DNA of 64,000 bases, from NCBI GenBank assembly GCA_964552755.1, contig CAZKHX010000001.1, forward strand, positions 18,007 through 82,006, in the 5' to 3' direction. Positions 3,208-35,464 of this stretch are shown piece by piece; positions within the stretch are counted from its first letter, which is position 1; each line of letters begins with the position of its first letter. The notes under the pieces were generated by a model. That model had not been told where the DNA came from. It saw only the letters and a list, made by a program, of their open reading frames with translations, and did no database searches. Position numbers and translations under genes: made by a program. This DNA comes from Candidatus Micrarchaeota archaeon. GTDB taxonomy: Archaea; Micrarchaeota; Micrarchaeia; Anstonellales; Bilamarchaeaceae.

Positions 3208-3218
3208 ATGGAATTCGC

Positions 3219-4781: not shown

Positions 4782-4807
4782 AAAAGATATCCGCCTAATC
4801 TATTTCC

Positions 4808-17911: not shown

Positions 17912-17948
17912 GCTAGAGTAAAAGGTGGAAACTTTTTATACGTGCGCC

Positions 17949-18518: not shown

Positions 18519-18857
18519 TCACACAAACCTCGTCCTGCATACCGGGCAGCGCGTCATGTACCCGCCCATCTCGTAGCCGCATATCGGGCAGCGCCACACC
18601 GTTTTCTTTGCGCGCTCCATCTCCGCCTTGAAGCTGAAGCCGCACTTTTCGCACACATTCGCGTCAAGGTCGTTGAGCTCCTTGCACTTTGGGCACTTCT
18701 TTTTGAACATGGATTTTATGCGGACCCCGCAGCTCGGGCAGCGCTCCATGTCCAGCGTGACCTGCGCCCCGCAGCTCGGGCACTTGAACTTCTTCCCGGC
18801 GAGGGTTGATTTGCCCTTGCCGCCCACCGCGCCCTTCAGCACGTCTAGTATGCCCAT
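18519..18857 (-). CDS. Triple zinc-ribbon protein
   Basis: Three CxxC...CxxC pairs: 'CPSCGAQ..CPSCGV', 'CPKCKEL..CEKCGF', 'CPICGYE..CPVCRT'. It abuts the upstream gene. Confidence 0.6.
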   Translation of the reverse strand: MGILDVLKGAVGGKGKSTLAGKKFKCPSCGAQVTLDMERCPSCGVRIKSMFKKKCPKCKELNDLDANVCEKCGFSFKAEMERAKKTVWRCPICGYEMGGYMTRCPVCRTRFV

Positions 18858-19870
18858 CTTGCCACCAGCGGCGCAAGCAGTATCAGAAGCGAAACGCAGC
18901 AGACCTTCTTCTCTTCGGGCACTGGCCTGTTGAACGGGTCGAAGCCTTCATCCCCGCCGCCCCCTTCAAGGGAGCCGCTGCCCGGGCTACCCGTTTCCTT
19001 CTCCACGGCGGGCAGCTCCTCCGGGAGCTCCCCCCCGCACTCATTCTCCATCGCGGCGTTCACCACCGAGAGGTCCAAATCGTAATCGCCCGCCTCCAGG
19101 TCGGATTCGAGCGAGGCGATTGCCGCGTCAACCGTGGAGCTGGAGCAGGACCTGTCGCTCTTCACCTTGAGCACGCCGTCAATTTTTTTCACCGCGGCCT
19201 CGCATGCGGCCTTGCCCTCCGAATATTCGCGCGCATCCTCGAGCGCGGGGCCGAGCAGGCTGGCCGCGCTGCTCACCTTGCACTGGCTCAAGAATGTGCG
19301 GGCGCTGCCCGCCTTGCCCGAAAGGCTTTCCACATCAAAGGGGCAGCATGCTCCGCTCGTGGTGCAGTAGTCCCCGCCCTCGAGCCCGGAGTAGAGCGCC
19401 TCCAGCTCGTCCGCATCCTCGATTGCCTGCGATTCGGAAGATGAGGGGTAATGGGTGAGGTTGTCCAGCTCTATAATATAGTAATAGTCGTCCCCGAGCT
19501 CGAACTTGAGCACTTCCACCCCGTCGAGGGTTTCCTCGGGCTCGCCCCCGAACTGGAAGGGCATCTCAAGGTCCTCGTTGTCCCCACACACGCTCCCGTA
19601 GGAGGAAATGCTGCACTCTCCGATTTCCACCCATCCCCCTGTTTCCCGGTCCATGTAGTAGAAGGTTGCGGTTTCGGATTCGCCGTACGGGTTGATTATC
19701 CATATTTCGAAGCTCACTATGGAGGGGCCGCTCGAGCCGCAGTTGGGTATCCTGTAGCCCGGGTGCACGCCCCTTACCTCTACGTCTGAATCGTCCATCT
19801 CGGTTGCGGCAAAAGCAAAGCCGGAAAGCATCAGGAAGCCTGCCAGCAGCAGGAACAGCGGCCTTTTCAT
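18845..19870 (-). CDS. Secreted Cys/acidic-rich protein with N-terminal signal peptide and C-terminal hydrophobic anchor
   Basis: 'MKRPLFLLLAGFLMLSGFAFA' is a signal peptide. The C-terminus 'KKVCCVSLLILLAPLVARWAY' is hydrophobic. First gene of the minus-strand operon. Confidence 0.6.
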   Translation of the reverse strand: MKRPLFLLLAGFLMLSGFAFAATEMDDSDVEVRGVHPGYRIPNCGSSGPSIVSFEIWIINPYGESETATFYYMDRETGGWVEIGECSISSYGSVCGDNEDLEMPFQFGGEPEETLDGVEVLKFELGDDYYYIIELDNLTHYPSSSESQAIEDADELEALYSGLEGGDYCTTSGACCPFDVESLSGKAGSARTFLSQCKVSSAASLLGPALEDAREYSEGKAACEAAVKKIDGVLKVKSDRSCSSSTVDAAIASLESDLEAGDYDLDLSVVNAAMENECGGELPEELPAVEKETGSPGSGSLEGGGGDEGFDPFNRPVPEEKKVCCVSLLILLAPLVARWAY

Positions 19871-19922
19871 GCGTCAGGATTAACCGGCAACCCTTTTTAT
19901 CTTTTTCCTCGAAAGTGGCGCA
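19870..19922. promoter_or_regulatory. Short divergent intergenic region with AT-rich TATA-like element between the two operons of the membrane-system block
   Basis: 'CCTTTTTATCTTTTT' lies ~30 nt upstream of ATG 19922. The same element read on the other strand precedes the minus-strand operon start (19870). Confidence 0.4.
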
Positions 19923-21187
19923 TGCGAAAGGCGCTTCTGCTACTGGCAGTGATTGCCCTGTGCCATGCAGGCGGCGCCTCCCCCAAAGTAGACCTCCCTG
20001 AGCTCGGGTTCGTATTCGTTGGCGCGGCAGTGCTCCTTTCCACGGCATTCATCGCGATAGCGTACATGGTCTCCAGCGCGTTCCAGAACCCGCAGGCGAT
20101 TGCATGGTCGAAGAACCAGCTGCGGGAACTGATTGTCGGGGTGTTCATAGTGGTACTGGTTGTCGGCGCGTACGTGGCGGCGAACGAGCTCATCTCCAGC
20201 ATGACCGGCTACCCCAACGCGGTGGAGCTGGGGGAGGACAACATCCGCGATATACTCGCCCCGATAGAAAAGATATACAAGAAGGTGGGCGAGGCCTATT
20301 TCACGCTCGGCCAGTACCAGGGCTCTTCCACCTCATACGTCTCTGGCAACCTCGGCTACATATACTATCATGAGTCCAAGAGCCCGTATTACGGGGTGAG
20401 CCCGGTGATGGGCAGCCTCAACCAGCAGACCTACCAGCTCACGATGCAGATACTCTCCTTCCGCTTCCTGCTTGTGCTTCTCCAGTACATAGACGTAGTG
20501 GTGCCGAATTTCCTCCTTCCGCTGGGCATGGCCTTCCGCGTGTTCCCGTTCACGAAAAAGATAGGGAACACGCTGATTGCGCTCGCTCTCGGCGCGCTCT
20601 TCATGCTGCCCGCGTCCCTGCTTGTGGTGGACGAGATGCGGAAGGCAATCACGTTCCAGCATGTGGACGCGGCCGCGCTCATGAGCTTCCAGGTGAGCAG
20701 CGCCATGGGCGAGATGACCGGCAGCGCCACAGGAGATGCGCTCTACAGCCTCCTCATATGGCCCTACCTGGTCGCAAAGGAAACCTGCGAAATAGCGACA
20801 GTCCGCACGTTCTTCTCTTTGGGGGAAATAGTGTGGGGCGTCATATATGCGACGCTTGCCGCGATAAAGTGCCTCGCCGGCTATGCGGCCTGCTGGGTGA
20901 TTGAGTTCAACTTCTTCGTGTTCTTCCTGTGGCCGTGGATAATGTTCTTTGCGCAGAACATACTCGCGGTGCTTGTCGCGATAGCCGGCACCCCGTCAGC
21001 GGGGTTCATCTACGACCTGCTGGTCGCGGACATAGTAAAATACCTATTCCCAGCGGTGAGCGAGCTCACCACCTTCTCCATAATGTCAATAATAGTGATA
21101 GCGGTAATCACGTTCACAGGAACGCGCTCGATATCTGTCGCCCTGGGAGGCGAGTACGCCCTTTCAGGGCTTTCGAGGCTGATATGA
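19922..21187 (+). CDS. Polytopic membrane protein, paralog M1 of a 6-member tandem family
   Basis: Signal-like N-terminus, multiple TM helices, core motif 'LLPLGMAFRVFPFTKKIGNTLIALALGALFMLP', C-terminus '...LSGLSRLI'. Stop overlaps the next start (ATGATGA). Confidence 0.75.
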   Translation: MRKALLLLAVIALCHAGGASPKVDLPELGFVFVGAAVLLSTAFIAIAYMVSSAFQNPQAIAWSKNQLRELIVGVFIVVLVVGAYVAANELISSMTGYPNAVELGEDNIRDILAPIEKIYKKVGEAYFTLGQYQGSSTSYVSGNLGYIYYHESKSPYYGVSPVMGSLNQQTYQLTMQILSFRFLLVLLQYIDVVVPNFLLPLGMAFRVFPFTKKIGNTLIALALGALFMLPASLLVVDEMRKAITFQHVDAAALMSFQVSSAMGEMTGSATGDALYSLLIWPYLVAKETCEIATVRTFFSLGEIVWGVIYATLAAIKCLAGYAACWVIEFNFFVFFLWPWIMFFAQNILAVLVAIAGTPSAGFIYDLLVADIVKYLFPAVSELTTFSIMSIIVIAVITFTGTRSISVALGGEYALSGLSRLI

Positions 21188-22074
21188 TGAGGGCCGCGCT
21201 CTTCCTCCTGCTGCTTGCGCCGCTGTGCTCCGCGGCAACCTGCGACTTCGCGAGCGACGTGTTCGCGGATGCAATCCCGATAATCGCCGCTGCGATACTT
21301 TTCTCAGTGGCGCTTGCCGCAATAATGTACATGGCAGGCAGCGTGCTGCACGACCCCGGCCTGCACGTGGGCAGCAAGGACCTGCTGTTCCAGGCATTCG
21401 TCTCCATACTGCTAGTGCTCTTCATACAGGGGCTGTTCACCGGGCTGTGCCTCATGACGGCAGATTTCCTGGGAGGGCAGGATGCCCTCTCCACCGCAAT
21501 CTACGATCTGAGGCAGCTCAAGATTGAGGGTGCGCAGATACTCACCAACCTGATGAAGAAGGTGGTGAACGAGAAGTTCACCGCGGCGTATTTCTCCGGC
21601 TACTACATCCCGCTGAGCGGGGGCGAGACGTTTTTCCCCTACGGGGAGCACAACGCATATGCGCGCCATGCGGAAATCGTCTTCGACATGGCGATGATCG
21701 GCTACGTGAGCGTGGGCATACAGAGCATGATACTGAAAGGGATACGGGACCTCACGCTCGCGATACTGCTCCCGTTCGGGCTGATACTGCGCTCCCTCCC
21801 CAAGCTCAGGGAGGGCGGCAACATCCTCATCGCGCTCGCTCTCGCATTATATGTGGTATTGCCGTTTGCGTATGCTGTGAATTCCACCGCTGCGGACATC
21901 ATCCCTGATTTCTGCGACGGCGATGACGGGGTGTTCGGCGCATGCGGGGATGGGTACGGGTTCGGCACGGTCGGGCTCTACCTGTTCCGTACGGTATTCC
22001 TACCGAACCTCGCGCTGGTGATTTTCGCAACTTCCGCAGGCGCGCTGGTGAAAGTCGCGAAGGTGATTCCATGA
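21184..22074 (+). CDS. Polytopic membrane protein, paralog M2
   Basis: 'MMRAALFLLLLAPLCSA' N-terminus; core motif 'LLPFGLILRSLPKLREGGNILIALALALYVVLP'. ATGA overlap with M3. Confidence 0.7.
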   Translation: MMRAALFLLLLAPLCSAATCDFASDVFADAIPIIAAAILFSVALAAIMYMAGSVLHDPGLHVGSKDLLFQAFVSILLVLFIQGLFTGLCLMTADFLGGQDALSTAIYDLRQLKIEGAQILTNLMKKVVNEKFTAAYFSGYYIPLSGGETFFPYGEHNAYARHAEIVFDMAMIGYVSVGIQSMILKGIRDLTLAILLPFGLILRSLPKLREGGNILIALALALYVVLPFAYAVNSTAADIIPDFCDGDDGVFGACGDGYGFGTVGLYLFRTVFLPNLALVIFATSAGALVKVAKVIP

Positions 22075-23879
22075 ACAGGCGCATAGCGGCATTGCTGCTC
22101 CTCGCGATATTCCTTTTCGGGTGCGCCACGGAAGGCACTGCGACCGAAAGCGCGATAATCGAGGCGCAGGAGCGCGACACGCTCGTAGGCAACATGGTCG
22201 CGAACTGGGAGCTCTTCGCGGTAATGCTGATGCTCATCTCCGTGGGCCTTGTCGCAATGGCGTATGCGATTTCCATCTCCTTCAACCTCCCCGACCTGAG
22301 GGCATGGGCGGACGTTGAGCTCTCGGAAGTGTTCACCACCGCGCTCATAGTGATTTTCATAATCGCGATACTGGTATTCGTGGATGTTACTGCCGGCGCG
22401 ATGGTTGCAAGCGAGCCGATGTTCGCAGGGACGTGCGACCCGATGCTGAATCCCGAGGCCGGGCATGCCTTCTGCCCGTCCCTGCTCGCAAAGGAATACA
22501 TCGGCCAGTACGTGGATGCGGCGGAAACGCTTTACGAAAAGCTCACCAAGCGCGCGATAAACAAGGCGCAGGATGCGACCTACTCCTCCGGGCTCGGCAT
22601 CTCTTACCAGATTTACCTCTACCTCTCCATCTCATGGAGGAACCAGCCGTGGGAGATGATGAATGTGGAGCGGCTGGAGCAGCTAATCAATTTCACCGGC
22701 ATGGTGCTGGGCGCGCTGCACACGCAGAGGTTCCTGATAGATTCCATGTCGCTCGGCTTCGGGCCGATTGCCCTGCTCCTTGGCATAGTGTTCCGCTCGT
22801 TCTTCGTAACGCGCAAGATGGGCGGCCTGCTGATGGCATTTGGAATTGGGTTCATGCTGGTCTACCCCGCGTCGTATGCGCTAGGCTGGTTCACGCTTAA
22901 CGTTGCGATTTACGGAGTGGAGAACGTTGCGAGCGGCCCCACGGGCACATGCCCGCAGTCCTGCCTGCAGGCCCCTCCTTCCGGCTTCTACACCGACACG
23001 CTGGAGCCCGCGGCGTACAATGACGTTTATGCGGCCGCACTGGAAGAGGCGGACGGGGATGCGGAAGCGGCAAATGATGTCCTCCGCGGGTTCTTCAATG
23101 GCTCTACCCAGCGCCTCGGGGGCATTGAGTCGTGCGAATACTACGGCAATGAAGATGCGCTGAACTGCAGCTCCGCATGCAGGAGCCTCCCCTACCCGAT
23201 GCAGTCCTCGGGCTGCGCCGCGCGGGAGGCGGCATGCGCGGAGATGCCCGATGCGTGCATAATTTCGCACTATTACGATTCCGCGGACCCGGTGCTCCAG
23301 AACATAGATGCCGCAGCGGAGGTGAAGGCATGCCCGGCGGACTGCCAGCCCCTCGTGCCGATGAAGAGGGACTGCATCGAGGAATACGGGTATTCATGCC
23401 CGTCCCAGTGCAGGTACGTGATACTGGATACCGGGACCGGCGCGACAAAGACCGAGCCGGGGTGCTGGTGCACCGAATATTACCCAACTAATGCGCTCGA
23501 GCTATGGAGCGGAGCCCGCGCGGAGGAGAGCTGCGTGTACATAATTCCGGAAAAGGTCTATGACCAGCCGACCTACTGCAATGACTGCAGCTACACACTC
23601 GATCCCGGGCTTGCGTACAAGCCGCAGGTGTTCGTGGACTGCACTTCCCTTTGCGGCTCATCCACCAACCCCACCATAAACACCGAGGACCCGGCAACCG
23701 CTTCGAACAAGGTGGACGGGTTCATAGGGAACTCGGACATCAAGTCCGCGGCGAAGCTGGTGGTCCCCGCGTTCCTGCTGCCGCTGTTCAACCTCGCGGT
23801 AACCTTCATATTCATACAGACGCTTTCCCCGATGCTCGGCGGGGACATCGACATACCGGGCATGATGAGGCTGATATGA
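22071..23879 (+). CDS. Polytopic membrane protein, paralog M3, with ~290-aa Cys-rich extracytoplasmic insertion
   Basis: 'MNRRIAALLLLAIFLFGC' lipobox-like N-terminus; core motif 'IALLLGIVFRSFFVTRKMGGLLMAFGIGFMLVYP'; >25 Cys in the 22900-23760 segment; C-terminus '...IPGMMRLI'. Confidence 0.7.
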   Translation: MNRRIAALLLLAIFLFGCATEGTATESAIIEAQERDTLVGNMVANWELFAVMLMLISVGLVAMAYAISISFNLPDLRAWADVELSEVFTTALIVIFIIAILVFVDVTAGAMVASEPMFAGTCDPMLNPEAGHAFCPSLLAKEYIGQYVDAAETLYEKLTKRAINKAQDATYSSGLGISYQIYLYLSISWRNQPWEMMNVERLEQLINFTGMVLGALHTQRFLIDSMSLGFGPIALLLGIVFRSFFVTRKMGGLLMAFGIGFMLVYPASYALGWFTLNVAIYGVENVASGPTGTCPQSCLQAPPSGFYTDTLEPAAYNDVYAAALEEADGDAEAANDVLRGFFNGSTQRLGGIESCEYYGNEDALNCSSACRSLPYPMQSSGCAAREAACAEMPDACIISHYYDSADPVLQNIDAAAEVKACPADCQPLVPMKRDCIEEYGYSCPSQCRYVILDTGTGATKTEPGCWCTEYYPTNALELWSGARAEESCVYIIPEKVYDQPTYCNDCSYTLDPGLAYKPQVFVDCTSLCGSSTNPTINTEDPATASNKVDGFIGNSDIKSAAKLVVPAFLLPLFNLAVTFIFIQTLSPMLGGDIDIPGMMRLI

Positions 23880-24922
23880 TGAGGAAGCTGCTGCTGTTCG
23901 TGCTGCTGGCCGTTGCGGCCTGCTGGGCTGCCGAGCCCTATGAATGGCAGGCGCTCTCCATCATGGCGGTGTTCGTCGCGTTCATAGTCCTGGTAATCCT
24001 GTACATGCTCACCTACCTTGCGAATTCGCCGGAAATGCGCACAATGGTGAGCAGCGAGATGTACCAGGTGATATTCACCCTTTTCATAATCGCGATATTC
24101 ATCGGGGTGGAGGCGTTCTCCGCGGAAGTGATCGGGCCGGCTTTCGGCCTCGATTTCGGGGCGGCGGAGGGCCAGAACCAGATAGACTACGCACTGGAGG
24201 TCACGGGCGGCCCGGACGCATCCGACGGCCTCATCGCCTACCAGTGGGGCGAGATGCTCTCCTTCGCAAACAACGTGGTCTCGCCGCTGGGCACGCTTTC
24301 CGCGCTGAGCGCAAGGTGCTCGTTCCTCGGGTTCTCCTTCGGGTTCGCGGGCTGCGCAGGGCTTGCGGTGCCGTTCGCCTCCGCGTCCCTCGCAATGCGC
24401 GTGCTCTCAACCTCGCTGCTTATGCTCAATTCACAATACTTCCTGCTGAAGCTCGCGCAGGGCTTCTTCTTCCCGGTGCTGCTGCCGGTGGGGCTGTTCC
24501 TGCGCTCGTTCCACGTCACTAGGGGCGCGGGCGCCCTCCTCATTGCAATTGCCGCGGCATTCTATTTCATGTACCCGGTCGGCGTGCTCGTGACAAAGGG
24601 GATGGCGGACATGGTGGACTACCCGGACCCGGACATCCCGCACTTCGAGGCGCCGGACCCGACCGAGGCAGGGGAAATCCTTGGCGTGGACCTGCCCCCG
24701 GACGTCGACTGCAACCCCTTCGACAATGACTACAAATACACGAAAAGCGCGATGAACAAGCTGCTTGATGACGATTTCCTGCAGCCCATGCTGTTCCACT
24801 TCATGATTGCCGGCCTGCTGAATACTGCCCTGAGCCTTATGATAGCCCTCTCCGTTGTCGGGGGGCTTGCGAGGCTGTTCGGCGCGGAGGTTGACGTTTC
24901 CGCGCTTGCGAGGATGATATGA
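23877..24922 (+). CDS. Polytopic membrane protein, paralog M4
   Basis: 'MMRKLLLFVLLAVAACWA' N-terminus; core 'LLPVGLFLRSFHVTRGAGALLIAIAAAFYFMYP'; C-terminus '...SALARMI'. ATGATGA overlaps at both ends. Confidence 0.75.
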
Positions 24923-25932
24923 TGGGATGCCCTATTGACCTTTCAGGAGTTTACGGCCTTTCGGTGCTGGCACTGGGCATTACATTGATTGCCGTGGGGC
25001 TTGCTTATGCGCTCGGGCAGATGCTCAGGAACCCGCGCTTCAACGTTTGGGCAAAGACGGAAGTGTTCCAGGTATTCGTTACATTCGTGCTGGTGATTGT
25101 CACGCTTTTCCTTGTGGACAGCCTGTGCACGTTCCAGTATGGCGCGCTCACCTCGCTTGCGCCCATCTCGGTTGAGGCGTATGAGCATCCCGCAATATCG
25201 GATACGGACGTGGTGGCGGACGCCGCGGGAGGCTACCTCAAGAACCTCGCGTATTTCGCGCACATAGCAATGGGCAACTCCCGCGCGGTTTACGGCGGGC
25301 TGGAGAAGGCGCTGCGCTATAGCCGCTCCCCATGCATGCCCGCGTGGCTCCTCTGCATGCTCGGGCCGAACGGGTACACGCTCGCGCCCTACAGGGGCGG
25401 CTCCGGATGGATACAGGTCGCGAACCTCACCCTCTACACAGACACAATCTCATATCTCACGGTGCTTGCGCAGCTTGCGCTGCTGCAGTTCATACTCGGG
25501 GGCGGGCTCGCGGTGCTGATGCCCGCGGCAATAATCATACGCTCCCTCCCGTTCATGCGGATATTCGGGGGAGGCCTGCTCGCGATATGCATATCCCTGC
25601 TCATAGTCTACCCGTTCCTGCTGATGGCGGAATCGCTTTTCTGGAACCCGTATGAGATGATAGGGCAGGAGAATTTCGATGGCCTGGAAGACCTTGCAGG
25701 GAAGGCGCGCGATGCCAGCCACTCCGATGACCTCACGCTTTGGTCGGGAGGCGACGGCTATTCCAAGCTGCAGAGGTACTTCGACCAGGTGTTCCTCGGC
25801 TCGTCCGCCACATTCATGTCCTCGACTTTCCTGTTCATGCTGAACGTGCTTGTGATTACTGCCTCCGCGAGGGAGTTCGGCCGCGTGCTCGGAGTCGAGG
25901 TTGACATGAGCCGGCTGATGCAGATAGTGTAG
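24919..25932 (+). CDS. Polytopic membrane protein, paralog M5
   Basis: Core 'LMPAAIIIRSLPFMRIFGGGLLAICISLLIVYP'; C-terminus '...SRLMQIV'. Confidence 0.7.
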   Translation: MMGCPIDLSGVYGLSVLALGITLIAVGLAYALGQMLRNPRFNVWAKTEVFQVFVTFVLVIVTLFLVDSLCTFQYGALTSLAPISVEAYEHPAISDTDVVADAAGGYLKNLAYFAHIAMGNSRAVYGGLEKALRYSRSPCMPAWLLCMLGPNGYTLAPYRGGSGWIQVANLTLYTDTISYLTVLAQLALLQFILGGGLAVLMPAAIIIRSLPFMRIFGGGLLAICISLLIVYPFLLMAESLFWNPYEMIGQENFDGLEDLAGKARDASHSDDLTLWSGGDGYSKLQRYFDQVFLGSSATFMSSTFLFMLNVLVITASAREFGRVLGVEVDMSRLMQIV

Positions 25933-25940
25933 GTGATGAG

Positions 25941-26954
25941 ATGACTGCAGGCGTTGATGAGATGCTCGGGACGGTTTTCCTCAGCCAGTGGGTTGCGCAA
26001 ATGGGCTGGTTCACCAATGCGGTGCTCGCGGTCATCGTCACCGCCTTCATATTCGGGATAATCTACGTGATTGCGTACGCAATCAACTCCTTCCCGCTGA
26101 GGAGGTACGCGACATCGGAGTTCCTGCAGCTCGCGGCTACCGCGCTGATGGTAATCGGGCTGGTGGCCTTCATCCAATTGGGCTCTGCCGCGGTTTCCAC
26201 CTCCCTCGAGGGACTGGGCGTGCCATGCATGGGCGAAACATATGTTGAGCCGATAAGCGCCGCGATGTGCAAGACGGAAGAGCGGCTGATATTCTTCGAT
26301 GAGGCATGGAGCTTCCTGCGCGAGGACGTGCGCGGGGCGGAATGGTTCTACTACTTCACGATTTCCTATTACGGCGTGCCGCTGTTCCAGGGGCTTTGGG
26401 TGGCGTCAATCCACAGGCAGGTGGAGACCGCGCACTACCTTGCGTACAAGATAGTGTCCATACAGCTTTCCCTCAATGCGCAGATGTTCCTGCTGAAATA
26501 CATACGGGAAAACATGCTCACCATCTTCCTGCCGCTGGGGATAATACTGCGCACGTTCTATTTCACGCGCGGCATAGGCGGGTTCTTCATAGCGCTGGCG
26601 CTGTCCCTGTATTTCATATACCCCACAGCGCTGTTCATCATGACCGCGGTTTCCATCGGGCCGCCGGCCGTGCCGGTCCCCTCGCTTACCACAGTGGGCA
26701 TCTGCGACCTTCCAATGTACTCCGGAATGGCGTTCGGCTCCGCGAACCTTGCGACCATGGCCGGCACGGGCGGGAGCACGATGGCCTCCGCAAGCGTGAA
26801 CACAATCGCATCCTTTGTGAATACGGTATTCGTGAGGATGTTCTATGAGAACATGGTCGCGTTTGCGATTGCGCTTACCGCGCTCCGCTACGCAGGGGTG
26901 CTGCTTGGCACCGAGACAGGGGTGTTCCTGCACATGGTTTCGAGGTGGATATGA
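25941..26954 (+). CDS. Polytopic membrane protein, paralog M6
   Basis: Core 'FLPLGIILRTFYFTRGIGGFFIALALSLYFIYP'; C-terminus '...HMVSRWI'. ATGA overlap with the next gene. Confidence 0.7.
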   Translation: MTAGVDEMLGTVFLSQWVAQMGWFTNAVLAVIVTAFIFGIIYVIAYAINSFPLRRYATSEFLQLAATALMVIGLVAFIQLGSAAVSTSLEGLGVPCMGETYVEPISAAMCKTEERLIFFDEAWSFLREDVRGAEWFYYFTISYYGVPLFQGLWVASIHRQVETAHYLAYKIVSIQLSLNAQMFLLKYIRENMLTIFLPLGIILRTFYFTRGIGGFFIALALSLYFIYPTALFIMTAVSIGPPAVPVPSLTTVGICDLPMYSGMAFGSANLATMAGTGGSTMASASVNTIASFVNTVFVRMFYENMVAFAIALTALRYAGVLLGTETGVFLHMVSRWI

Positions 26955-29900
26955 TGAAAAAGCTTCTTGCGCTGCCCGCAATCGCCTTCCTTTTCCTTCT
27001 GGGGTGCAACGCGCCCACTTACCAGGATTGCTGCCTTTACGCGAACGCAAGCGATAGCGGCATCTGCGTGATGCTGAACGGCACAATCTACGATGACAGC
27101 ACCTGCGACATGGAACTGCTCACCTGCAACGTGACGCTGGACGACAGGGAGCTGGAGATCCCCCTCTGCCCGAAAGTGGACAAGGTTAGATGCAACACCT
27201 CCTGCGTGGGCGTGTTCTGCGGCAGCTTCGACTACGACCCGAGGCCGCTGCCCAGCCCCGCGGATGACATGCAGAGCGACGATGAGGAATCGCAGGAGCG
27301 GGTGACTGCAGGCTCCGCTTCCGAGCGCGGGCCGATAAACCTTTTCCAGTCCGAGTGCAGGGTGAAGAACATCACCCCCGCGTTCCTGCGCGCCGCGAAG
27401 AGCACGGGCGGGTTCACGCTCAACGTGTTTCGCTTCGGGGTCGGGAACTCCTTCGCGGAATTCGACGAGGCGATGGCATACTTCCCGCTCACCGACCTCT
27501 CCTGCAGGATAAACATGTACGGGACGAAGGACCGCTACGTGAACTACGTGCTGCCGAACAGCATAGACGGCTCGGAAAAGCTGTGCAGGTTCACCGGCAT
27601 CCTTGACGCGATGTATATCTGCAATATTGATTCCACAATCGAGTCGCACAGCTATTACGACTGCGCGAGCAGATGCGCGCTCGCATACCAGGGCTACGAG
27701 CCCAATGTGGACCCGGACAACCCCTACCCTACGGAGAACGAGGCCGGGGAGCTCGTGGGCAACCCGTTCTCGTACGGGATTTACGGCACCTATTCGCTTG
27801 CTCCGGCCGAGCCGCTTGTGCTGAGCAGCAAGTACCGCGACCAGGTTGACATGTCCGGCATCACGTTCACTTCCACCTCGCCATTCAAGGACGAGTACCA
27901 GCCGGGCTACAACTTCTACGGCGCGACCTTCAGGAAATCCGATTCGCTCAGCGCGGAGAGGGGGGGAATAGACTGGGCAGTCGCAAGATACGGCCTGCCC
28001 ATTTTCTTCACCGATTCCATATACGACTATTACTCCGGGGAGATGGAGGACACGGACTCCATGGAGTTCTCCGGCTCCACCACCGTTTTCACCACCGCGG
28101 AGCAGGACCTGCACGGCGCGTACATCCCGCTGCTCACCCACCACTCGGTTTATGCGGACCAGCTTGCCGAGGGCCACAGGCTAGACAACGGCTCATGGAT
28201 GCCGGGCGCGGAGTTCGAGTGTGCGGACAATTCCGAATGCATCTCCGGCTTCTGCAACACTTTCGACTACCACCGGGGCAACTGCATCCCCAAGGACAAG
28301 TGGATTCTGGGCGAATATATCTCCAACTATGAAGTGCCGTGCGGCTGCTGGGAATACCAGGGCGAGACGCTCTGCCCAGGGATGCAGAGCTATGAGGCGC
28401 AGGCATGGGACGACACAAGCGAAAGGGTGCGCGCGACCGCAGCGCTTTCCGCCCCCGTGCGTGCGCACAAAGAGCTGGAGGTGCTCACCCCGCTGCGGAG
28501 CATGCCCTCCAAGGGCCGCGTGTTTTCCCATGAGGATGATGAGACCGGGGAAACCATCCCCTACGTAGTGATACAGGTCGGCGGGGAAAGCAGGCACCCT
28601 ACTTACGGGTACACTAATTTCGGAGCCCTGGACATGGCAGGCGTGTTCGATGATGAATCGTACAGGGCCGCGATGGCAGCATGGCTCATGGCCGTCGATG
28701 CAAGAACCCTTACCATCGACCAGGCGCTTTCCCGTGACAAGTGGGGCCAGTGCGGCACGGACTGCGGCAAGTTCTACACGACCTTTGCGGAGGCATGCAT
28801 GCCCGAATGGGATTCCGACCCGGATGCGTATGACTATTTCCACATGTGCAGGGAGTTCCCCGAGGTTTCCGGCGGCTCTGCACCCCCCGCCGCAGTCTAC
28901 GGGAAAAAAGTGTCCCCTTCCACCGGGGAAGCGGTGGATTCCGGCTTCTGCGCCTCCCTCAACGGGAACAGCGAGCTGTACGATGAGGTCTTCTGCTATG
29001 AGCGCAACATAGACGATGACTGCGTAGCATGGTCCACTACCGCGATAGTTGTAGAGCCGCGCCCGGTTACTTACCGCGATGAGGAGGGCAGGGAAATTGC
29101 AGGCTATGCTTTCGGCAACTGCCTTGCGGACGAGGACGGCACGGAGCTGCTCACGCACACCTACGGGATTTGCGAGCAGTGCACCTTCCTCACGCTCGCG
29201 AAGCAGGAAATCGTTCCCCTCCCGCAGGACGAGGACGACCCGGGCTACCCAGGGAGCGGCGACAGGGAGGACAACAAGTACTGCCCGAACGTGGTGGTGG
29301 AGACGCCCTACGAGCCGAACGACCCTGCAGTAACGAAATTCGGGAGCCTCGGCCCTTATGACGAGTGGCAGGTTGGCGGCACTCACGGCACCGAGGACTA
29401 TTCTCAGTGCTACATGCCGGACTATTCCGAGAACGGCCTGCAGGAAGCCTGGGCCGACTACCTGCCCAACGCATACTACCTTAAGAGGAAAACCGAGAGC
29501 TACCTAGTGCGGGGCGTGATGCCCGTAATCGTCGCGACCAACGACAGCCTCTGGGAGGCATACACGAGCCCCGGGGGCGAGAGAGACTGGGCGCTGATGG
29601 CGTATTATTGGAACCACATCACGAGGGATGACGAAGGATATGCGCGGGTAACTATAGACGCGAGCCACCCCTACATGATTGAGCTTGCGGAGAACGAGCC
29701 GCAGCTGCTGGAGCAGTTCGCGCAGCATGACGAGGCCGGGGAATACTATGCCTTCGGAGGCCCGCTGCTCCTGAACGGCATACAGGACATGGGCGCCGCG
29801 ATAATCATCGTCGGGAACCAGGACCTTGGCGACTGGAGCAGCATACCCCTGTTCGGCGCTTACAGTGCCGGGGGCGGGGCAAGCAACAGGGACAGGGCCA

Positions 29901-31108
29901 GGGCGGTCCGCCTCATCTGCCCCAACTGCATGGTCGCAGTGGGCGCGGGTTATACCGGATACGGGGGGGATGCCGAGAACAGCTACCAGCGCCGGCTCGA
30001 TTTCGCGAACTTCCTTTTCCGCTACCAGAACGAATCAACGCATTACATACTCAACGGGCCGGACAGCTACAACCTGACCATCCCGTGCGAAGACCCGCGG
30101 CTTGAATGCGACAACGAGGCCCTGAACCTGGTGGACGTGCTTGCGATGAAATGGGAGCTCAGCAAGGAGGATTCCTTCTGCGAAATAGAAAATGAGCAGG
30201 AGCGCTTCCAGGCAATCCTTGACGCGGAAACCGGCCTCGGCTCGCGCATGCTTGCGCGCTTCCACAAGCCGGTCGTGATTACGGACTTCAGCATAGTGCT
30301 CACCGAGTTCGATACCTGCTGGGACGCGGAGAGCGCCGCACGCTTCATGGTATTCCTTTCGGAGCACACGCAGGAGCTTGCGGAGAGCGGCCACCTAGGC
30401 ATAATCTATGATGCATGGACGAAGGAGCGGGCGGAGGCCGCGCCCACGGGCACCGCCACCGCTGCGGAGCAGGGCCGCGCCTACATCCGCGTGGACTCGG
30501 GCGACGTGGACGGCAGGAGGGGCACGTTCTATGAGGGCGCCTTCATCGCCTCGCGCATCTTTGCGGGCTACGAGCACAAGACCTATTTCAACGAGGTGAG
30601 CGCAACCGAGGAATGCTACTGCGAGCCCTGCCTGCCCTCCGACCCGGATGAGATTTGCAACGGCCGCTACCGCGGGGTTGGCTATGAGTGCAAGGACTAT
30701 GACGGCTCGCGCAGCAAATGGTCTGAAATGTGCGTCTCGCTCAACCAGTGCACCCTCCCCGGCGAGGATGATTATGAGATTGAATGCGACGTGATATACA
30801 ACAACGGCACCCGCACCACGGAAACCTACCATTCTGATGACATTGCGGAAACCCCTCAGCTCTACATGGACGTGATTGCCTCAATCGAGGAGGGCTACGG
30901 CACGCCCTGCTTCAACTTCAGCGGCAATTACATAAGCTATGTGAAGATTGGCGAGCCGATTTTCCAGGCAACGCCCACGATGTTCAGGACCGATGGCGAC
31001 ACCGCCAAGTCCTGCACCCCGCTGGAGGGCTTCGACCTTTCCTTCTGCGGCTACACGCCGCCCGTGAGCGACAGGGAGATGCACTGTGAAATACTAGGGG
31101 TGAGGTGA
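26951..31108 (+). CDS. Giant (1387-aa) secreted cysteine-rich lipoprotein
   Basis: 'MMKKLLALPAIAFLFLLGC' is a signal peptide plus lipobox. The protein is very Cys/Asp/Tyr/Asn/Gly-rich throughout and has no TM after the signal. It is translationally coupled to M6. Confidence 0.75.
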   Translation: MMKKLLALPAIAFLFLLGCNAPTYQDCCLYANASDSGICVMLNGTIYDDSTCDMELLTCNVTLDDRELEIPLCPKVDKVRCNTSCVGVFCGSFDYDPRPLPSPADDMQSDDEESQERVTAGSASERGPINLFQSECRVKNITPAFLRAAKSTGGFTLNVFRFGVGNSFAEFDEAMAYFPLTDLSCRINMYGTKDRYVNYVLPNSIDGSEKLCRFTGILDAMYICNIDSTIESHSYYDCASRCALAYQGYEPNVDPDNPYPTENEAGELVGNPFSYGIYGTYSLAPAEPLVLSSKYRDQVDMSGITFTSTSPFKDEYQPGYNFYGATFRKSDSLSAERGGIDWAVARYGLPIFFTDSIYDYYSGEMEDTDSMEFSGSTTVFTTAEQDLHGAYIPLLTHHSVYADQLAEGHRLDNGSWMPGAEFECADNSECISGFCNTFDYHRGNCIPKDKWILGEYISNYEVPCGCWEYQGETLCPGMQSYEAQAWDDTSERVRATAALSAPVRAHKELEVLTPLRSMPSKGRVFSHEDDETGETIPYVVIQVGGESRHPTYGYTNFGALDMAGVFDDESYRAAMAAWLMAVDARTLTIDQALSRDKWGQCGTDCGKFYTTFAEACMPEWDSDPDAYDYFHMCREFPEVSGGSAPPAAVYGKKVSPSTGEAVDSGFCASLNGNSELYDEVFCYERNIDDDCVAWSTTAIVVEPRPVTYRDEEGREIAGYAFGNCLADEDGTELLTHTYGICEQCTFLTLAKQEIVPLPQDEDDPGYPGSGDREDNKYCPNVVVETPYEPNDPAVTKFGSLGPYDEWQVGGTHGTEDYSQCYMPDYSENGLQEAWADYLPNAYYLKRKTESYLVRGVMPVIVATNDSLWEAYTSPGGERDWALMAYYWNHITRDDEGYARVTIDASHPYMIELAENEPQLLEQFAQHDEAGEYYAFGGPLLLNGIQDMGAAIIIVGNQDLGDWSSIPLFGAYSAGGGASNRDRARAVRLICPNCMVAVGAGYTGYGGDAENSYQRRLDFANFLFRYQNESTHYILNGPDSYNLTIPCEDPRLECDNEALNLVDVLAMKWELSKEDSFCEIENEQERFQAILDAETGLGSRMLARFHKPVVITDFSIVLTEFDTCWDAESAARFMVFLSEHTQELAESGHLGIIYDAWTKERAEAAPTGTATAAEQGRAYIRVDSGDVDGRRGTFYEGAFIASRIFAGYEHKTYFNEVSATEECYCEPCLPSDPDEICNGRYRGVGYECKDYDGSRSKWSEMCVSLNQCTLPGEDDYEIECDVIYNNGTRTTETYHSDDIAETPQLYMDVIASIEEGYGTPCFNFSGNYISYVKIGEPIFQATPTMFRTDGDTAKSCTPLEGFDLSFCGYTPPVSDREMHCEILGVR

Positions 31109-31118
31109 GGGTGATTTA

Positions 31119-34100
31119 ATGTTTTGTCCCGAAATAAAGGCGATGAGGCCCGCCGCATTCCTTGCGCTCCTGATTCTCGTTTCCCTAGCCTTTTCCACGA
31201 CCGGCCGGCTGCCCATGCAGATCGACCAGCCGCCGCTTATACCCGGGATGGGCGTCCCGCCCATGCACGTCCCTCCCCCTTGCGAGGAATGCCCTGCAGA
31301 GGGTTCCCTGCAGCCGTTCATGTTCTCCTCCCTAAATGAGGAGGCGGAGATTACCACTGTTACGATGGGGGTGCAGGCTGCGGACGAGCGCTACCCCGTG
31401 GAGGGCGCCACAATTTTTGCATATGTTTACGACCGTGACGGGTTCGAAACTGACAAGTGCAGGATGTACACCGATTCATCCGGCACCGCGGAATTCGACT
31501 TCAGCGGCATCCCGGAATGCACCGGAGGGGACGGGTGTACGATGCGCTTCATCTTCTGCTGCCCGAACCCCGGGCAGGGGTGCCTCATCGCAAGCTGCCT
31601 TGACGAGCCGATTACCGATTATACTGATTTCCCAATGTGCGCAGATTACAGCGGCGGGATATGGCCCGAGGCCGCAACGGTAGACGGTTCAGAGGAGCCG
31701 CTTTTCCCTGCGTATACCGAAACGGTGAGGCCGCCCGAAGAGGTGGTGATTGGCACCGCATTCGAGTTCGACCTCTGCTTCCCGGTGCTTGTCATTTTCG
31801 GCTTCCTTGCGGCCGCGATGTTTGCCGCGGGCAGGAATCCCTTCTCTGCATTTTCCATCTACACCCCGCGCTACACGCGGGGCGCGGAGCGCGCAATCAG
31901 TGCCCGCGGGTTTTCAATTGACGCGGCAAGCGTCGCGAGCGCGCTCGGCCTCGCCATGGCAGGGGGCAAGGCGCTCAAGAAGGCCGCGAAAAAGGCCGCG
32001 GCAAAGGCCAAGAAAGCGGGAGTGAGCGCCAAAAAGGTGCAGATGGCGGTGAAAGGCGCACAGACCCCTTCCAAGAAGCTGGGAGTGCAAGAAGGAGAAG
32101 AGGCAAAAGGGGGCGCGCAGGCCCAAAAGGCCGAATTGACCGGGGCGGGGGGGCCGACGCAGGCGGAAATAGCGATGGGCGCGGCCGCAGGAAAAGCGAT
32201 GCCCGGAGGCACCGCGATGGCCTTCGGAAAGTCCTTCTTCAAGGCAATATTCTCAATATTCAAGGGCGGCGATGCCGCAAGGGCAGCATGGGCGGAATTC
32301 GGGCAGCTGATGTCTGCCGGCAAGTTCAGGGGAGACATGGCGGCCCAATACCAGGGAGCAGGGGTAAGGGAGGCAGGGCTCGCATTCCTGGATACCCTCC
32401 TGCTGTTCGCAACCCCCTTCGGCCTTTACTATGCATTCGGGCAGCTGGGCCCGGTCAAGAAGCAGCTTGCCAAATACCAGGGCCAGAGGAACGCTCTTGT
32501 CGCGGCAGGCCTCATAAACCAGTTCAAGGAAGGCACCGCCTACATAAAGGAGAAGGACGGCATAGTCACGGTGCAGTTCGACAACGTCGCCACCGGGGAA
32601 ACAGTAAAGGAAACGTTTGACATAACCACAGAAAAGGGCATGAAGGCCTACCAGCACTTCCTCAACATCAACATAGTGATGCCTATCCAGATAGGCACCT
32701 CATTCATCCAGAGCCAGATGCAGGAAGGCCAGCAGGAAATGGCAAAGCAGGGGAACGGGGCGCTTACAGGGGATTCCGGGGACCTGCTCACCCAGTTCTA
32801 CCTTGTCGAGCAGGGCATGAACGTTGCGGAGCTCCAGAAATACTCCGACGCAAAGGCAGTCGACGCGGTGCTCACAGACCGCAAGGCCACTTCCGAGCAG
32901 AAGCTCTTCGCATTCCTTGCCTACATGTCCTCGGACAAGGCGAACCTTGCGAAGGCATCAAAGGAATACACGAGCTTCAACAGCTTCCTGCTCGGCTACG
33001 GGGGGGCCGCGGACCTAGTGGGCGAAGACGGCAAATTCAACGTTTCCGCCCTTACCGGAGCAATGCTGCTCTCGGGCCAGCTGGAAGGGGTATCCGAGAA
33101 GAAAGTCAGCGGCATAGCCGCGTTCAAGGCGAACCTTGAGGGGACCGTTGACCGGACAACCGGAGCGGCGCAAAACGAGGCAATAGAATCCCAGCTGCTG
33201 GCAATGGAAGCGCAGATGCTGCTTGAGGGAAAGGGCGAAAGGGAAATCGCGGTTGCGAAAAACAGGCAGGAGGCATACCTGCGCGGGAAGGGCATGGGGA
33301 TTTCCTCCGTCCTCGCGACCGAAGGCATGGGCGAGGACAGCAAGGCCGTCCAATTGGGCATACTCTCCCTGGGCTTTGCGAACATGGCCTATTCCGAGCA
33401 GCTTGGGAACAAGTCAATTGCGGAAACCGGCACCGGCAAGCTGAACAAATACTCTGCGGAGTATGCCGCGTGGAAGAAGCTCGAGATAGACGTAAGCGAG
33501 AGGAAGGGGGAGAAGCTGGAGCAGTTTGCGGATTCCTATAAGGATTATCAGGCATTCCTCGGGTATTCGCAGGAGATTGCGCTCGCGCTCCCGGAAATGC
33601 CCCCCGCGCTGCAGTACAAGCCGGAGGGCTCGCCCTCTGCCATGGCAATCGGCGTGGTTTCTGGGCAGGCGAAGCTGGAGAGCGTCCCGAAGGTGAGCGT
33701 CGGGGACGTTGCGGTTGCAGGCACCTACCAGATAGTGGGCAACCAGCAGGAAGCCGCGACGTATCTCAAAAACCTTGGGCAGATAGGCAATGCGTTCGAA
33801 ACGATGGGAATGCTCCTGCAGCCGATGGCAGTGGCCAACAACATAAACGCAATGAGTGTAGGCGGGGACCCGGAAACCGGCAAGGAAGGCAAGCCAGTTT
33901 ACGAACTGCTCGTTTCGGGAGAGCCGAAAGGCAAGAAGAAGGGAGAACTGTACGACTCGGCCATCTATGTAATGATGAGCACGCTGGAAACCTCATTCGG
34001 CGAGCCGCTTTCCACGCGGGGGGCGGAGGAGTATAAACAATTCGACTACATAAACTCCGGCGCGAAAAAGGCAGGGGAAAAGCCGCCGGAATATAAGGGC

Positions 34101-35156
34101 GCGGAGCTGCAGAAGCAGCTGGATGCGCAGGCAGCCATAATACTTGACCCTGCCGCAGACCCGGATGCAAAAGCCAAGGCGCTTGAGCAGTTTGGGTACC
34201 TTGCGCTGGGCACAATCCAGAGCTCCGGCAGCGCCAAGAAGGACAGGGGCATTGCGCTGGATGCAATTGCAGAGCTCGGCGTGACCAAGGCAACAAACCA
34301 ATATACGGACGCAACCCTTGGCCCAGAATACCTCCCCACATTCGAGACGACGACTGCCGAAACCGCCGCGGCGGAGCAGATACAAATAACAAAGGTGCAA
34401 TACCAGGCCCCCCAGCCCGAATATTCGAAGCCGGAAACCTCAGGGATGCTTACGACTTACCTCACCATGGGAAATACTTTCGCTGGCACTGAATCAATCC
34501 CCGGGGGGAGGGACCTGAAGAAAGAGATTGACTCCCAGACAAAGGTAGCGACTGACCCGAATTCCTCCCCGGACCAGGTAGCCGAATCGTTGCTTGTGCT
34601 TGGGCCGCTGACGCTTGGCGTTCTGCAGAACCCTGAAAGCAGCGCACAGGACAAGGCGCTGGCAAGGGCGGCCCTCACAGGCCTTGCGGACAAGGTGCCT
34701 GCTGACAACCTGCTGCCTCCCGAAGAAACGGTTGCCGAAACCACAGCAGGGGAACAGTTCAAAATCACGAAAAAAGGTTATGGCGCTCCGCCCCCCGCAT
34801 ATGCTCCCCCGGAGCCGGGCGCGAAGCCTCCCCTGGCCGGGGTGGAAGGCCTCGACCCGATGCAGAATTTCCAGAACATATACAACCTGCCGTCAGCGCA
34901 GAAGGCAATTGGCAAATACATGGAAGACCCAAAGATCCATGATGAAGCATTCAAGATGGAAAAAACCGCGAAGGAAACCTACGAAAGCATACCTGTGGGC
35001 GGCTACATAAGCAAGGAAGAGAAAGAGACCGTGCCCTTCCTTGAAGAACGCCCGTTGCCAAGGGCTACTGAGAGGTTTGAAGCGCCGCACGAAGCGACCG
35101 GCCCAAAAACAAGGGAGGAAAAGGCCGCAGGGCATTCCAAAGGCGGTAAGAAATGA
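31119..35156 (+). CDS. Giant (1345-aa) membrane protein: signal peptide, Cys-rich ~200-aa ectodomain, TM helix, then ~1100-aa K/A/E/Q-rich helical low-complexity domain with internal repeats
   Basis: Strong SD 'GGTGAGGTGAGGGTGAT' lies before ATG 31119. TM 'FEFDLCFPVLVIFGFLAAAMFAAG' at ~aa 215-238; 'KKAAKKAAAKAKKAG' tracts; ~130-aa internal repeat ('TAETAAAEQIQITKVQYQAPQPE' / 'TVAETTAGEQFKITKKGYGAPPPAY'). Confidence 0.75.
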   Translation: MFCPEIKAMRPAAFLALLILVSLAFSTTGRLPMQIDQPPLIPGMGVPPMHVPPPCEECPAEGSLQPFMFSSLNEEAEITTVTMGVQAADERYPVEGATIFAYVYDRDGFETDKCRMYTDSSGTAEFDFSGIPECTGGDGCTMRFIFCCPNPGQGCLIASCLDEPITDYTDFPMCADYSGGIWPEAATVDGSEEPLFPAYTETVRPPEEVVIGTAFEFDLCFPVLVIFGFLAAAMFAAGRNPFSAFSIYTPRYTRGAERAISARGFSIDAASVASALGLAMAGGKALKKAAKKAAAKAKKAGVSAKKVQMAVKGAQTPSKKLGVQEGEEAKGGAQAQKAELTGAGGPTQAEIAMGAAAGKAMPGGTAMAFGKSFFKAIFSIFKGGDAARAAWAEFGQLMSAGKFRGDMAAQYQGAGVREAGLAFLDTLLLFATPFGLYYAFGQLGPVKKQLAKYQGQRNALVAAGLINQFKEGTAYIKEKDGIVTVQFDNVATGETVKETFDITTEKGMKAYQHFLNINIVMPIQIGTSFIQSQMQEGQQEMAKQGNGALTGDSGDLLTQFYLVEQGMNVAELQKYSDAKAVDAVLTDRKATSEQKLFAFLAYMSSDKANLAKASKEYTSFNSFLLGYGGAADLVGEDGKFNVSALTGAMLLSGQLEGVSEKKVSGIAAFKANLEGTVDRTTGAAQNEAIESQLLAMEAQMLLEGKGEREIAVAKNRQEAYLRGKGMGISSVLATEGMGEDSKAVQLGILSLGFANMAYSEQLGNKSIAETGTGKLNKYSAEYAAWKKLEIDVSERKGEKLEQFADSYKDYQAFLGYSQEIALALPEMPPALQYKPEGSPSAMAIGVVSGQAKLESVPKVSVGDVAVAGTYQIVGNQQEAATYLKNLGQIGNAFETMGMLLQPMAVANNINAMSVGGDPETGKEGKPVYELLVSGEPKGKKKGELYDSAIYVMMSTLETSFGEPLSTRGAEEYKQFDYINSGAKKAGEKPPEYKGAELQKQLDAQAAIILDPAADPDAKAKALEQFGYLALGTIQSSGSAKKDRGIALDAIAELGVTKATNQYTDATLGPEYLPTFETTTAETAAAEQIQITKVQYQAPQPEYSKPETSGMLTTYLTMGNTFAGTESIPGGRDLKKEIDSQTKVATDPNSSPDQVAESLLVLGPLTLGVLQNPESSAQDKALARAALTGLADKVPADNLLPPEETVAETTAGEQFKITKKGYGAPPPAYAPPEPGAKPPLAGVEGLDPMQNFQNIYNLPSAQKAIGKYMEDPKIHDEAFKMEKTAKETYESIPVGGYISKEEKETVPFLEERPLPRATERFEAPHEATGPKTREEKAAGHSKGGKK

Positions 35157-35464
35157 CCGGAACCCGGCCGATGAGGCGCCTGAGGCGCCACCTCACGGTT
35201 GAGAACCTCTGGCTATACATCCTCTCATTAATCAGGAAAAAGAAGGAAGTTTACGCATATGCGCTCCCGGAAGAGATAGAGAAGCGCTATTCCTTCAAGC
35301 CCAGCAGGGTGATGATGTACATAGTATTGCACATGCTGGAGGATGAGGGGCTTATTACAAGCAAAATGAAGGAGCGCAGGAAATATTACAGGCTTACGAA
35401 GAAAGGCAACGAAGCGCTGAAAGAATCCAGGAAAATGCTCACATCCCTTTCAAGGAAGCTCTGA
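35153..35464 (+). CDS. PadR-family winged-helix transcriptional regulator
   Basis: 'ENLWLYILSLI...YAYAL...MYIVLHMLEDEGLI...RKYYRLTKKGNEAL' is a PadR signature. ATGA overlap with the giant gene. Confidence 0.75.
   Translation: MTGTRPMRRLRRHLTVENLWLYILSLIRKKKEVYAYALPEEIEKRYSFKPSRVMMYIVLHMLEDEGLITSKMKERRKYYRLTKKGNEALKESRKMLTSLSRKL

Follow-up and report, generated by a model that had tools for sequence, protein, structure and literature searches.

The DNA analysed here is a 64,000-nucleotide stretch of a Candidatus Micrarchaeota genome (GenBank assembly GCA_964552755.1, contig CAZKHX010000001.1, positions 18,007 to 82,006 of the forward strand; hereafter the window, in whose own numbering all coordinates are given). 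It encodes an array of six paralogous polytopic membrane proteins (M1 to M6), two giant proteins (G1 and G2) and a PadR-like regulator. In the explanation that accounts best for the data, and which we hold with good though not full confidence, these nine genes form one operon. The mRNA of M1 would be leaderless, and each internal gene would start 7-8 nt after a Shine-Dalgarno (SD) core (AGG, usually AGGTG or GAGG). Selection would hold this SD-to-start distance constant and let the upstream stop codon float, so that it may lie on the start (TGATG or ATGA), between SD and start, or inside the SD itself (TAGGTG or TGAGG). Where the stop lies on the start, as at five of the six M junctions of the window, the last three sense codons of the upstream gene would have to supply the SD; only Arg(AGG)-hydrophobic-x, Lys-Val (AAG GTG) or Gln-Val (CAG GTG) would then be allowed, with a last codon ending in A or G. 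These limits would be overlaid on a longer motif, G-x-E-x-D-x-S-x-L-x-R/K-Φ-x, which the family as a whole conserves at the protein level. This junction architecture is real and conserved, but ordinary, having already been described for tightly packed archaeal and bacterial operons.

The sequence GATATGATG is present in exactly four copies in the window (at 21181, 23873, 24916 and 26948), against an expectation of 0.27 from shuffled sequences, four copies being reached in none of 100 shuffles. These copies mark the M1/M2, M3/M4, M4/M5 and M6/G1 junctions, where the upstream proteins (M1, M3, M4 and M6) end in RLI*, RLI*, RMI* and RWI*, respectively, and where the TGA stop lies over two consecutive in-frame ATGs, which allows an overlap of either the ATGA (-4) or the TGATG (-1) kind. 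An earlier, sequence-only reading of this DNA had placed the downstream ATG inside the upstream stop at these same four junctions, and all the strings that it quoted are present. M1 (19922..21187, plus strand, as are all nine genes; 421 amino acids (aa), C-terminus ...LGGEYALSGLSRLI*) and M2 (21184..22074; 296 aa counted from the first ATG, with a second ATG at 21187; C-terminus ...VKVAKVIP*) meet in GAGGCTGATATGATGAGG (21175..21192), in which the Arg codon AGG is the SD core and TGA overlaps ATG at -4 and -1. The M3/M4 junction (23867..23884) carries the identical GAGGCTGATATGATGAGG; it joins M3 (22071..23879; 602 aa; C-terminus ...LGGDIDIPGMMRLI*), a paralog with a large Cys-rich insertion, to M4 (23876..24922; 348 aa; C-terminus ...FGAEVDVSALARMI*). 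The identity of these two junctions had been recognized before, as a 17-mer; it is an 18-mer. M4 is joined to M5 (24919..25932; 337 aa; C-terminus ...LGVEVDMSRLMQIV*, with Gln rather than Arg at the aligned -3 position) by GAGGATGATATGATGGG (24910..24926), and M6 (25941..26954; 337 aa; C-terminus ...FLHMVSRWI*) to G1 by GAGGTGGATATGATGAAA (26942..26959), where AGGTGG is encoded by R-W.

The earlier reading did not include four other junctions. At M2/M3 (AAGGTGATTCCATGA, 22060..22074), M2 ends in KVIP* with a -4 overlap (ATGA), and the codons for K-V-I-P, 7 nt ahead of the overlap, are almost fully complementary to the canonical 3' tail of the 16S rRNA. At M5/M6 (TAGGTGATGAGATG, 25930..25943) there is no overlap: the TAG stop is fused into the SD (AGGTGAT), the gap is +8, and the start lies 7 nt after AGG. 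A stop fused to the SD is also found at G1/G2 (TGAGGGTGATTTAATG, 31106..31121; gap +10), and the ATG of the PadR gene lies over the G2 stop as ATGA (35153..35156). From M1 to G1 the gaps of the window are -4, -4, -4, -4, +8 and -4, followed by +10 (G1/G2) and -4 (G2/PadR). Overlaps amount to 1 or 4 nt only, and extended dual coding, with tens of codons read in two frames, was not found.

The strength of these SDs was assessed with the anti-SD taken as the canonical archaeal GAUCACCUCCU. Junction starts (n = 100, from the orthologous loci described below) have a mean duplex energy of -8.9 kcal/mol, compared with -4.3 kcal/mol at 2660 internal in-frame ATG or GTG codons, bearing out an SD-like core before internal starts as previously proposed. 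Energies of -6 or below are seen at 92% of junction starts vs. 26% of internal ATG/GTG, and, with the canonical anti-SD assumed, 59% of junctions reach -8.4 or below. The conserved nucleotides are those of the AGG/GGTG core, 7-8 nt before the start, and the AGG-to-start distance is 7-8 nt in 59 of 76 junctions. An apparent spacing of 5 nt occurs in 22 cases, all of them NTGATG with a second ATG at 8 nt, and in none of the junctions that have a single possible start. The four GATATGATG junctions of the window belong here: measured from the 3' G of GAGG, the first ATG is 5 nt away and the second 8 nt. The earlier figure of 7-9 nt between GAGG and ATG is correct only when the count begins at the 5' end of GAGG or runs to the second ATG. 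Because orthologs without the extra ATG begin M-[RK]-[RK], and because the 5-nt spacing is never obligatory, the second ATG (TGATG, -1) is probably the real start at these four junctions; the first would arise incidentally, where an ATA codon for Ile precedes TGA.

Orthologous loci indicate which features of the junctions are maintained. Searching genome contigs with the six window paralogs initially yielded no stretch conserved enough, and an alignment of M4 orthologs was used instead. The comparison comprises 19 loci, the window and 18 others, all with the same order of M1 to M6 followed by a giant protein; orthologous starts were placed by N-terminal alignment, and the 100 junctions were counted over 18 loci (all but L021). 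Start and stop overlap (-4 or -1) at 55 junctions, are separated by 0 to +4 nt at 21, by +5 to +12 at 19 and by +13 to +25 at two, and are displaced by inserts at three; 95 of the 100 thus lie within -4 to +12. The overlap described in the sequence-only reading varies among orthologs (-4, -1, 0, +1, +8 and up to +23). M2/M3 is the only junction of conserved geometry (-4 in 15 of 16 loci), and in an M5 and M6 tree the other junctions are unlike even on adjacent branches: the window has -4, -4, -4, -4, +8 and -4, its nearest relative (L004) -1, -4, -4, +8, +1 and -1. Since geometry varies between neighbouring branches, the overlapping nucleotide arrangement is not conserved as such.

When the core is missing from the coding sequence, it is found in the spacer. 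Where the gap is 5-25 nt, the stop runs straight into GG (TAGGTG or TGAGG) in 19 of 24 junctions, against an expectation of 12-28%. The M5/M6 junction illustrates the alternatives: in all four loci in which M5 has Q-V (cAGGTG), representing at least two lineages, the gaps are -1 to +1, and in the other 13 loci, mostly with Q-I or H-I, they are +3 to +23, and the SD is then found within the spacer or joined to the stop codon, most often as TAGGTG.

Constraint on the upstream coding sequence is evident in its last codons. The terminal Arg of M1, M3, M4 and M6 is encoded by AGG in 57 of 63 instances, vs. 34.3 expected from the codon usage of each locus, and never by CGC, although CGC makes up 21% of the background. 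The AGG fractions in the four terminal Arg columns (1.0, 1.0, 0.85 and 0.75) exceed those of twenty conserved interior Arg columns, a control with the same phylogeny (mean 0.56; p = 0.01). At the end of M2, Lys is AAG in 15 of 15 and Val is GTG in 16 of 16 instances, even where GTG accounts for 23-30% of Val codons; the last codon is NCA (CCA or TCA, each ∼13% of its own codon family) in 14 of 16 loci, the remaining two having CCG and a GTG start. Amino acid replacements retain the GG core: R→K-V is written AAG GTG (M3 and M6 of L016, a locus in which GTG is otherwise only 9% of Val codons, and M4 of L012), R→G is written GGG (M3 of L017 and L018), and K→R is written CGG-GTG (M2 of L017). Selection on the last few codons to spell the ribosome-binding site of the next gene, clearest at M2/M3, thus appears genuine from these codon patterns. 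The SD of a closely following gene was reportedly described by Eyre-Walker in 1996 as selecting synonymous codons and C-terminal residues. The bias of the last few codons towards the SD core is alike here; unlike that effect, it is seen on single conserved residues of one family, including R→K-V and R→G.

The longer C-terminal peptide behaves differently. Among the 50 representatives examined of 149 retrieved (from the best 150 hits of the family search, mutually <50% identical), the tail reads G-x-[ED]-x-D-x-S-x-[LI]-x-[RK]-Φ-x-COOH, and the protein always ends two residues past the R/K. M4 orthologs, ∼50% identical overall, have an invariant F-G-[AT]-E-V-D-V-S-A-L-A-R with the last two residues variable. 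In all M groups, synonymous codons are mixed at the conserved positions -16 to -5 of the tail; in M4, for example, Val is GTT, GTG or GTC, Ser is TCC, TCG, TCA, TCT or AGT, and Leu is CTT, CTG or CTC. An SD requires only two to three codons and therefore does not account for a motif of 12-15 residues, and judging from these alignments, and from its occurrence throughout a family of ∼3000 representative clusters, the long peptide is primarily a protein-level motif. The proposal that the C-termini are constrained at the nucleotide level consequently survives for the last two to four codons, with their AGG bias and the AAG-GTG of M2, and fails for the longer peptide, whose synonymous sites are free. 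Orthologs that keep the peptide without the overlapping arrangement had been named as pointing to a protein-level signal; the orthologous junctions come near to that outcome for the whole peptide only, not for the last few codons.

The first gene of the array differs from those that follow. No SD precedes M1 (duplex energy -3.1), and for this reason we infer that M1 is a leaderless first cistron. A TATA-like box (TTTTTATC, 19894..19901) lies 21-28 nt before its ATG and 24-31 nt before the ATG of a divergent gene encoding 341 aa; it is the only such box in the 51-nt divergent intergenic region (19871-19921), and M1 orthologs have TTTATATA at an equal distance before the start. This arrangement suggests one bidirectional promoter serving two leaderless mRNAs. 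The same distinction holds for other genes of the window: leading genes (those for phosphoenolpyruvate (PEP)-utilisers 1 and 3, the carbamoyltransferase-like gene, the AAA ATPase gene, the 341-aa gene and M1) have a TATA-like box ∼25-30 nt before the ATG and no SD, and internal genes have an SD. Only one TATA-like box precedes M1, and the array leaves no space for internal promoters; a single transcript and stoichiometric output, as previously surmised, are plausible on this layout. Two of the leading genes, the consecutive genes for PEP-utiliser 3 and the carbamoyltransferase-like protein, share the same AAAAAAGATATCCG ∼30 nt before their ATGs (3180-3218 and 4770-4807), probably a promoter that occurs twice.

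Operons in which the first cistron is leaderless and the internal ones are led by an SD are familiar among archaea, as in Sulfolobus/Saccharolobus and Haloferax (discussed in PMC6728339). The array resembles them in its TATA-like box ∼25-30 nt before the first ATG, the lack of an SD there and the presence of SDs internally; it differs in that its transcription start is a prediction from sequence. Classical translational coupling is that of E. coli trpE-trpD and trpB-trpA (TGATG) (reviewed in PMC12548453). There, as here, the stop lies over the next start and the SD within the upstream coding sequence, but the present case concerns a DPANN archaeon and uncharacterised membrane proteins known from sequence alone. 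To our knowledge, which rests on no literature search for this point, such a junction grammar has not been described for Micrarchaeota. In Haloferax volcanii and E. coli, termination-reinitiation has been shown to couple overlapping ATGA/TGATG pairs with the SD in the upstream gene strictly, and such pairs are enriched among subunits of heteromeric complexes (PMC6728339, PMC10666635). The pairs studied by Huber et al. (2019/2023) in that work share with the M array co-directional -4/-1 overlaps or very short gaps, an SD in the upstream 3' end, leading genes without an SD, and likely membership of one complex. Unlike them, the array comprises six successive paralogs with one grammar, the type of overlap is interchangeable among orthologs while the SD-to-start spacing is held, a stop-in-SD variant (TAGGTG-N5-ATG, +8) is frequent, and coupling is a prediction from the nucleotides.

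What is observed directly is the grammar and its conservation, the bias in codon use, and the division of constraint between the protein and the nucleotide level; re-initiation from one cistron to the next, a single transcript and stoichiometric output are inferred. A purely protein-level account would have the R-Φ-Φ tail be a functional peptide, for instance for assembly or sorting, GAGG a reflection of the preferred Arg codon and the overlaps generic compaction. It draws on the family-wide tail that always ends two residues past R/K, on the free synonymous variation at -16 to -5, on the majority status of AGG among Arg codons, and on the retention of Arg in M4 even where the start lies 8-13 nt further on. 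It is nonetheless improbable, as it leaves unexplained the excess of AGG at terminal Arg (57 of 63 vs. 34) and the absence of CGC, the invariant AAG-GTG of M2 even at a GTG share of 23-30%, the generation of the ATG from rare CCA/TCA last codons, the GGG that survives even a radical R→G replacement, and the reappearance of a stop-fused SD in non-coding spacers when the coding sequence lacks one. Recent gene conversion or duplication between paralogs might account for the identical 18-mers at M1/M2 and M3/M4, whose exact identity is striking in proteins only ∼24% identical. This source was rejected as having very little to recommend it: the identity ends at the motif, with different flanks; ortholog junctions are unlike each other (AGGCTGATATGATGAAG and AGGATGATATCATGATGAGG in L005); and few options exist at each position (AGG, [CA]TG, ATA, TGA, ATG, [AG]RG). 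That the overlaps are artefacts of longest-ORF annotation, with true starts further inside, is the least credible of the alternatives; gene callers do disagree at a few junctions (M4/M5 of L005 at -29, G1 of L017 at +50), yet the N-termini align over 19 loci as signal-peptide-like M-[RK]-[RK]-hydrophobic from the junction onward, and the SD spacing is consistent.

Independent initiation, in which the 30S subunit binds the SD of each cistron irrespective of upstream translation and proximity merely saves space, is a serious possibility, if a somewhat doubtful one. It is favoured by strong, well-spaced SDs at nearly all junctions, by the toleration of gaps of +8 to +23 nt and of inserts of 58-148 nt with their own SD, and by the lack of any sequestering RNA structure. 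Against it stand the 55 overlaps and 95 tight junctions among 100, the strict coupling of such pairs in both Haloferax volcanii and E. coli (13 of 14 tests; PMC6728339), and the absence of SDs from leading genes, a pattern that in Haloarchaea and some Crenarchaeota is accompanied by SDs serving mainly re-initiation (PMC6728339). On balance we lean towards re-initiation at the overlapping junctions, where the ribosome ending one cistron would start on the next. Several observations weigh against the operon model as set out at the beginning. The anti-SD was assumed, not read: an Rfam scan found no 16S gene in the window, only a 23S gene and four tRNAs. In the clade of L017-L020 the M4/M5 SD is poorly placed or absent, and in L019 the Arg codon at this junction is AGA, with a duplex energy of -1.4. 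Among Arg codons AGG is the most frequent to begin with (52-58%), and it makes up 85-100% of some interior Arg columns as well. Ortholog and paralog junctions are non-independent, such that p-values overstate significance. Local RNA structure at junctions is like that of gene interiors (unpaired probability 0.443 vs. 0.436, p = 0.51); no coupling-enforcing or sequestering hairpin was seen there, a structure test that does not separate coupling from independent initiation. Finally, two loci have gaps of +19 to +23, a distance that by PMC10666635 would abolish termination-reinitiation, and coupling therefore cannot be universal.

As a comparative example, the array shows SD-to-start spacing being conserved rather than overlap type, and a ribosome-binding site shaping individual conserved C-terminal residues. 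It also offers practical guidance for start calling in Micrarchaeota genomes: a first gene is leaderless, an internal start has an SD 7-8 nt ahead of it, and in NTGATG the second ATG is the one to choose. A junction between unrelated genes of the window is relevant in this regard. The zinc-ribbon gene on the minus strand ends ...AGG TTT GTG TGA, with the ATG of a 189-aa gene immediately next (18516-18521), which is the R-F-V*/start grammar of M1/M2 in the L009/L014/L017-L020 clade, in an unrelated protein; this supports a genome-wide rule for ribosome-binding sites.

The cluster to which these junctions belong is more novel and more interesting than their grammar, and is the bigger open question: a widespread, unannotated array of six membrane paralogs with giant surface proteins, in organisms attached to other archaea. 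The M proteins are distant paralogs (20-35% identity), and Pfam and NCBIfam scans of M1-M6 returned no family at E ≤ 0.01. AlphaFold2 predicts M4 to be an all-helical membrane protein (predicted local distance difference test score, pLDDT, 78.7), and Foldseek matched the model to no solved structure significantly (best E-value 0.66); a profile search of PDB sequences with the M proteins gave nothing below E = 1. A VirB6/TrbL-like identity, prompted by a motif and a low-ranked fold match (7o3v_J, an entry for the R388 VirB5/VirB6 stalk complex, rank 11 in Foldseek, E = 1.3, TM 0.21-0.25), was rejected as insignificant. An archaeosortase-type tail (PGF-CTERM and others) was likewise rejected, no curated Pfam or NCBIfam model matching M1-M6 at E ≤ 0.01; the M-protein tail is a short polar stretch after the last predicted helix, not a transmembrane helix followed by basic residues. 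The family comprises 3003 representative clusters at E ≤ 0.001, in which the domain always reaches the protein C-terminus, and some long members have N-terminal CARDB or beta-helix domains, which fits a role at the cell surface. The fixed order of the six paralogs in all 19 loci is only suggestive of subunits of one heteromeric complex.

The giant, Cys-rich G1 (26951..31108, 1385 aa) has a signal peptide and a lipobox-like LLGC, and matches no Pfam or NCBIfam family; it is followed by the second giant protein, G2 (31119..35156, 1345 aa), and by a 103-aa PadR-family winged-helix regulator (35153..35464; PF03551, E = 9e-14), the probable last gene of the operon. The array is part of a neighbourhood conserved in Micrarchaeota (15194-19870 on the minus and 19922-35464 on the plus strand of the window; also in L001, L002, L004-L006 and L017-L019). 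Its divergent side encodes a membrane-anchored, double-AAA Cdc48-like ATPase, a 189-aa protein, a 112-aa double zinc ribbon and a ∼335-aa secreted Cys-rich protein; its plus-strand side encodes M1-M6 and the two giant Cys-rich proteins, with the PadR regulator in the window. The whole divergent neighbourhood looks like one functional unit, possibly for the cell envelope or host contact. More speculatively, the tight, SD-spaced junctions might be the mark of an obligate six-paralog membrane complex that is produced jointly with two giant Cys-rich lipoprotein-like surface proteins; beside the membrane-anchored Cdc48-like ATPase, these might constitute an undescribed DPANN cell-envelope or host-contact machine, in which some C-terminal residues mainly spell the next ribosome-binding site. 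If so, residues such as the K-V-I-P of M2, or the family's Arg with its fixed place exactly two residues before the end, would be there chiefly for the ribosome. The M family, with ∼3000 representative clusters, has no Pfam, NCBIfam or PDB relative. A literature search for the cluster in Micrarchaeota found nothing relevant.

Individual loci depart from the common organization. L021 (GCA_902384585.1, 401-14802) also has the six-gene array and giant protein; N-terminal CARDB domains are present in its M4 and M5 (933 and 876 aa), and its M2 lacks the KVIP tail, the M2/M3 junction using TGAGGGAAGAAAATG. In L017 (1-680), the neighbouring Cdc48-like AAA ATPase, of 1397 aa, contains an intein (Intein_splicing and LAGLIDADG hits). 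An insert of 58-76 nt lies directly after the stop at three otherwise tight junctions (L001 6087-6162; L013 1181-1253 and 4424-4481). Its ends are conserved, AGCAAACCGGAG ... CGGAGGTTTGGTTCAC-ATG, with complementary CAAACC and GGTTTG near them, and where the start is moved away it carries its own GGAGGT, 10 nt before the ATG. This recurrent insert is perhaps a small intergenic element, mobile or regulatory; a search of the window for AGCAAACCGGAG...CGGAGGTTTGGTTCAC did not find it there. In L001 (9175-9322), a 148-nt insertion lies between M6 and G1; at its end the junction is repeated (GCGAGGTGGATATGATG), as though the insertion event had duplicated it.

All the closest named relatives of the window genes are from metagenome-assembled genomes of Candidatus Micrarchaeota. 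The window also codes for an eRF1/Pelota-type protein, a Cdc48-like AAA ATPase and an archaeal 23S rRNA. The 23S rRNA gene (5788-9376, minus strand) measures 3589 nt against a model of 2987 positions and has no adjacent 16S gene, which suggests an insertion or intron in the 23S gene and unlinked rRNA genes.

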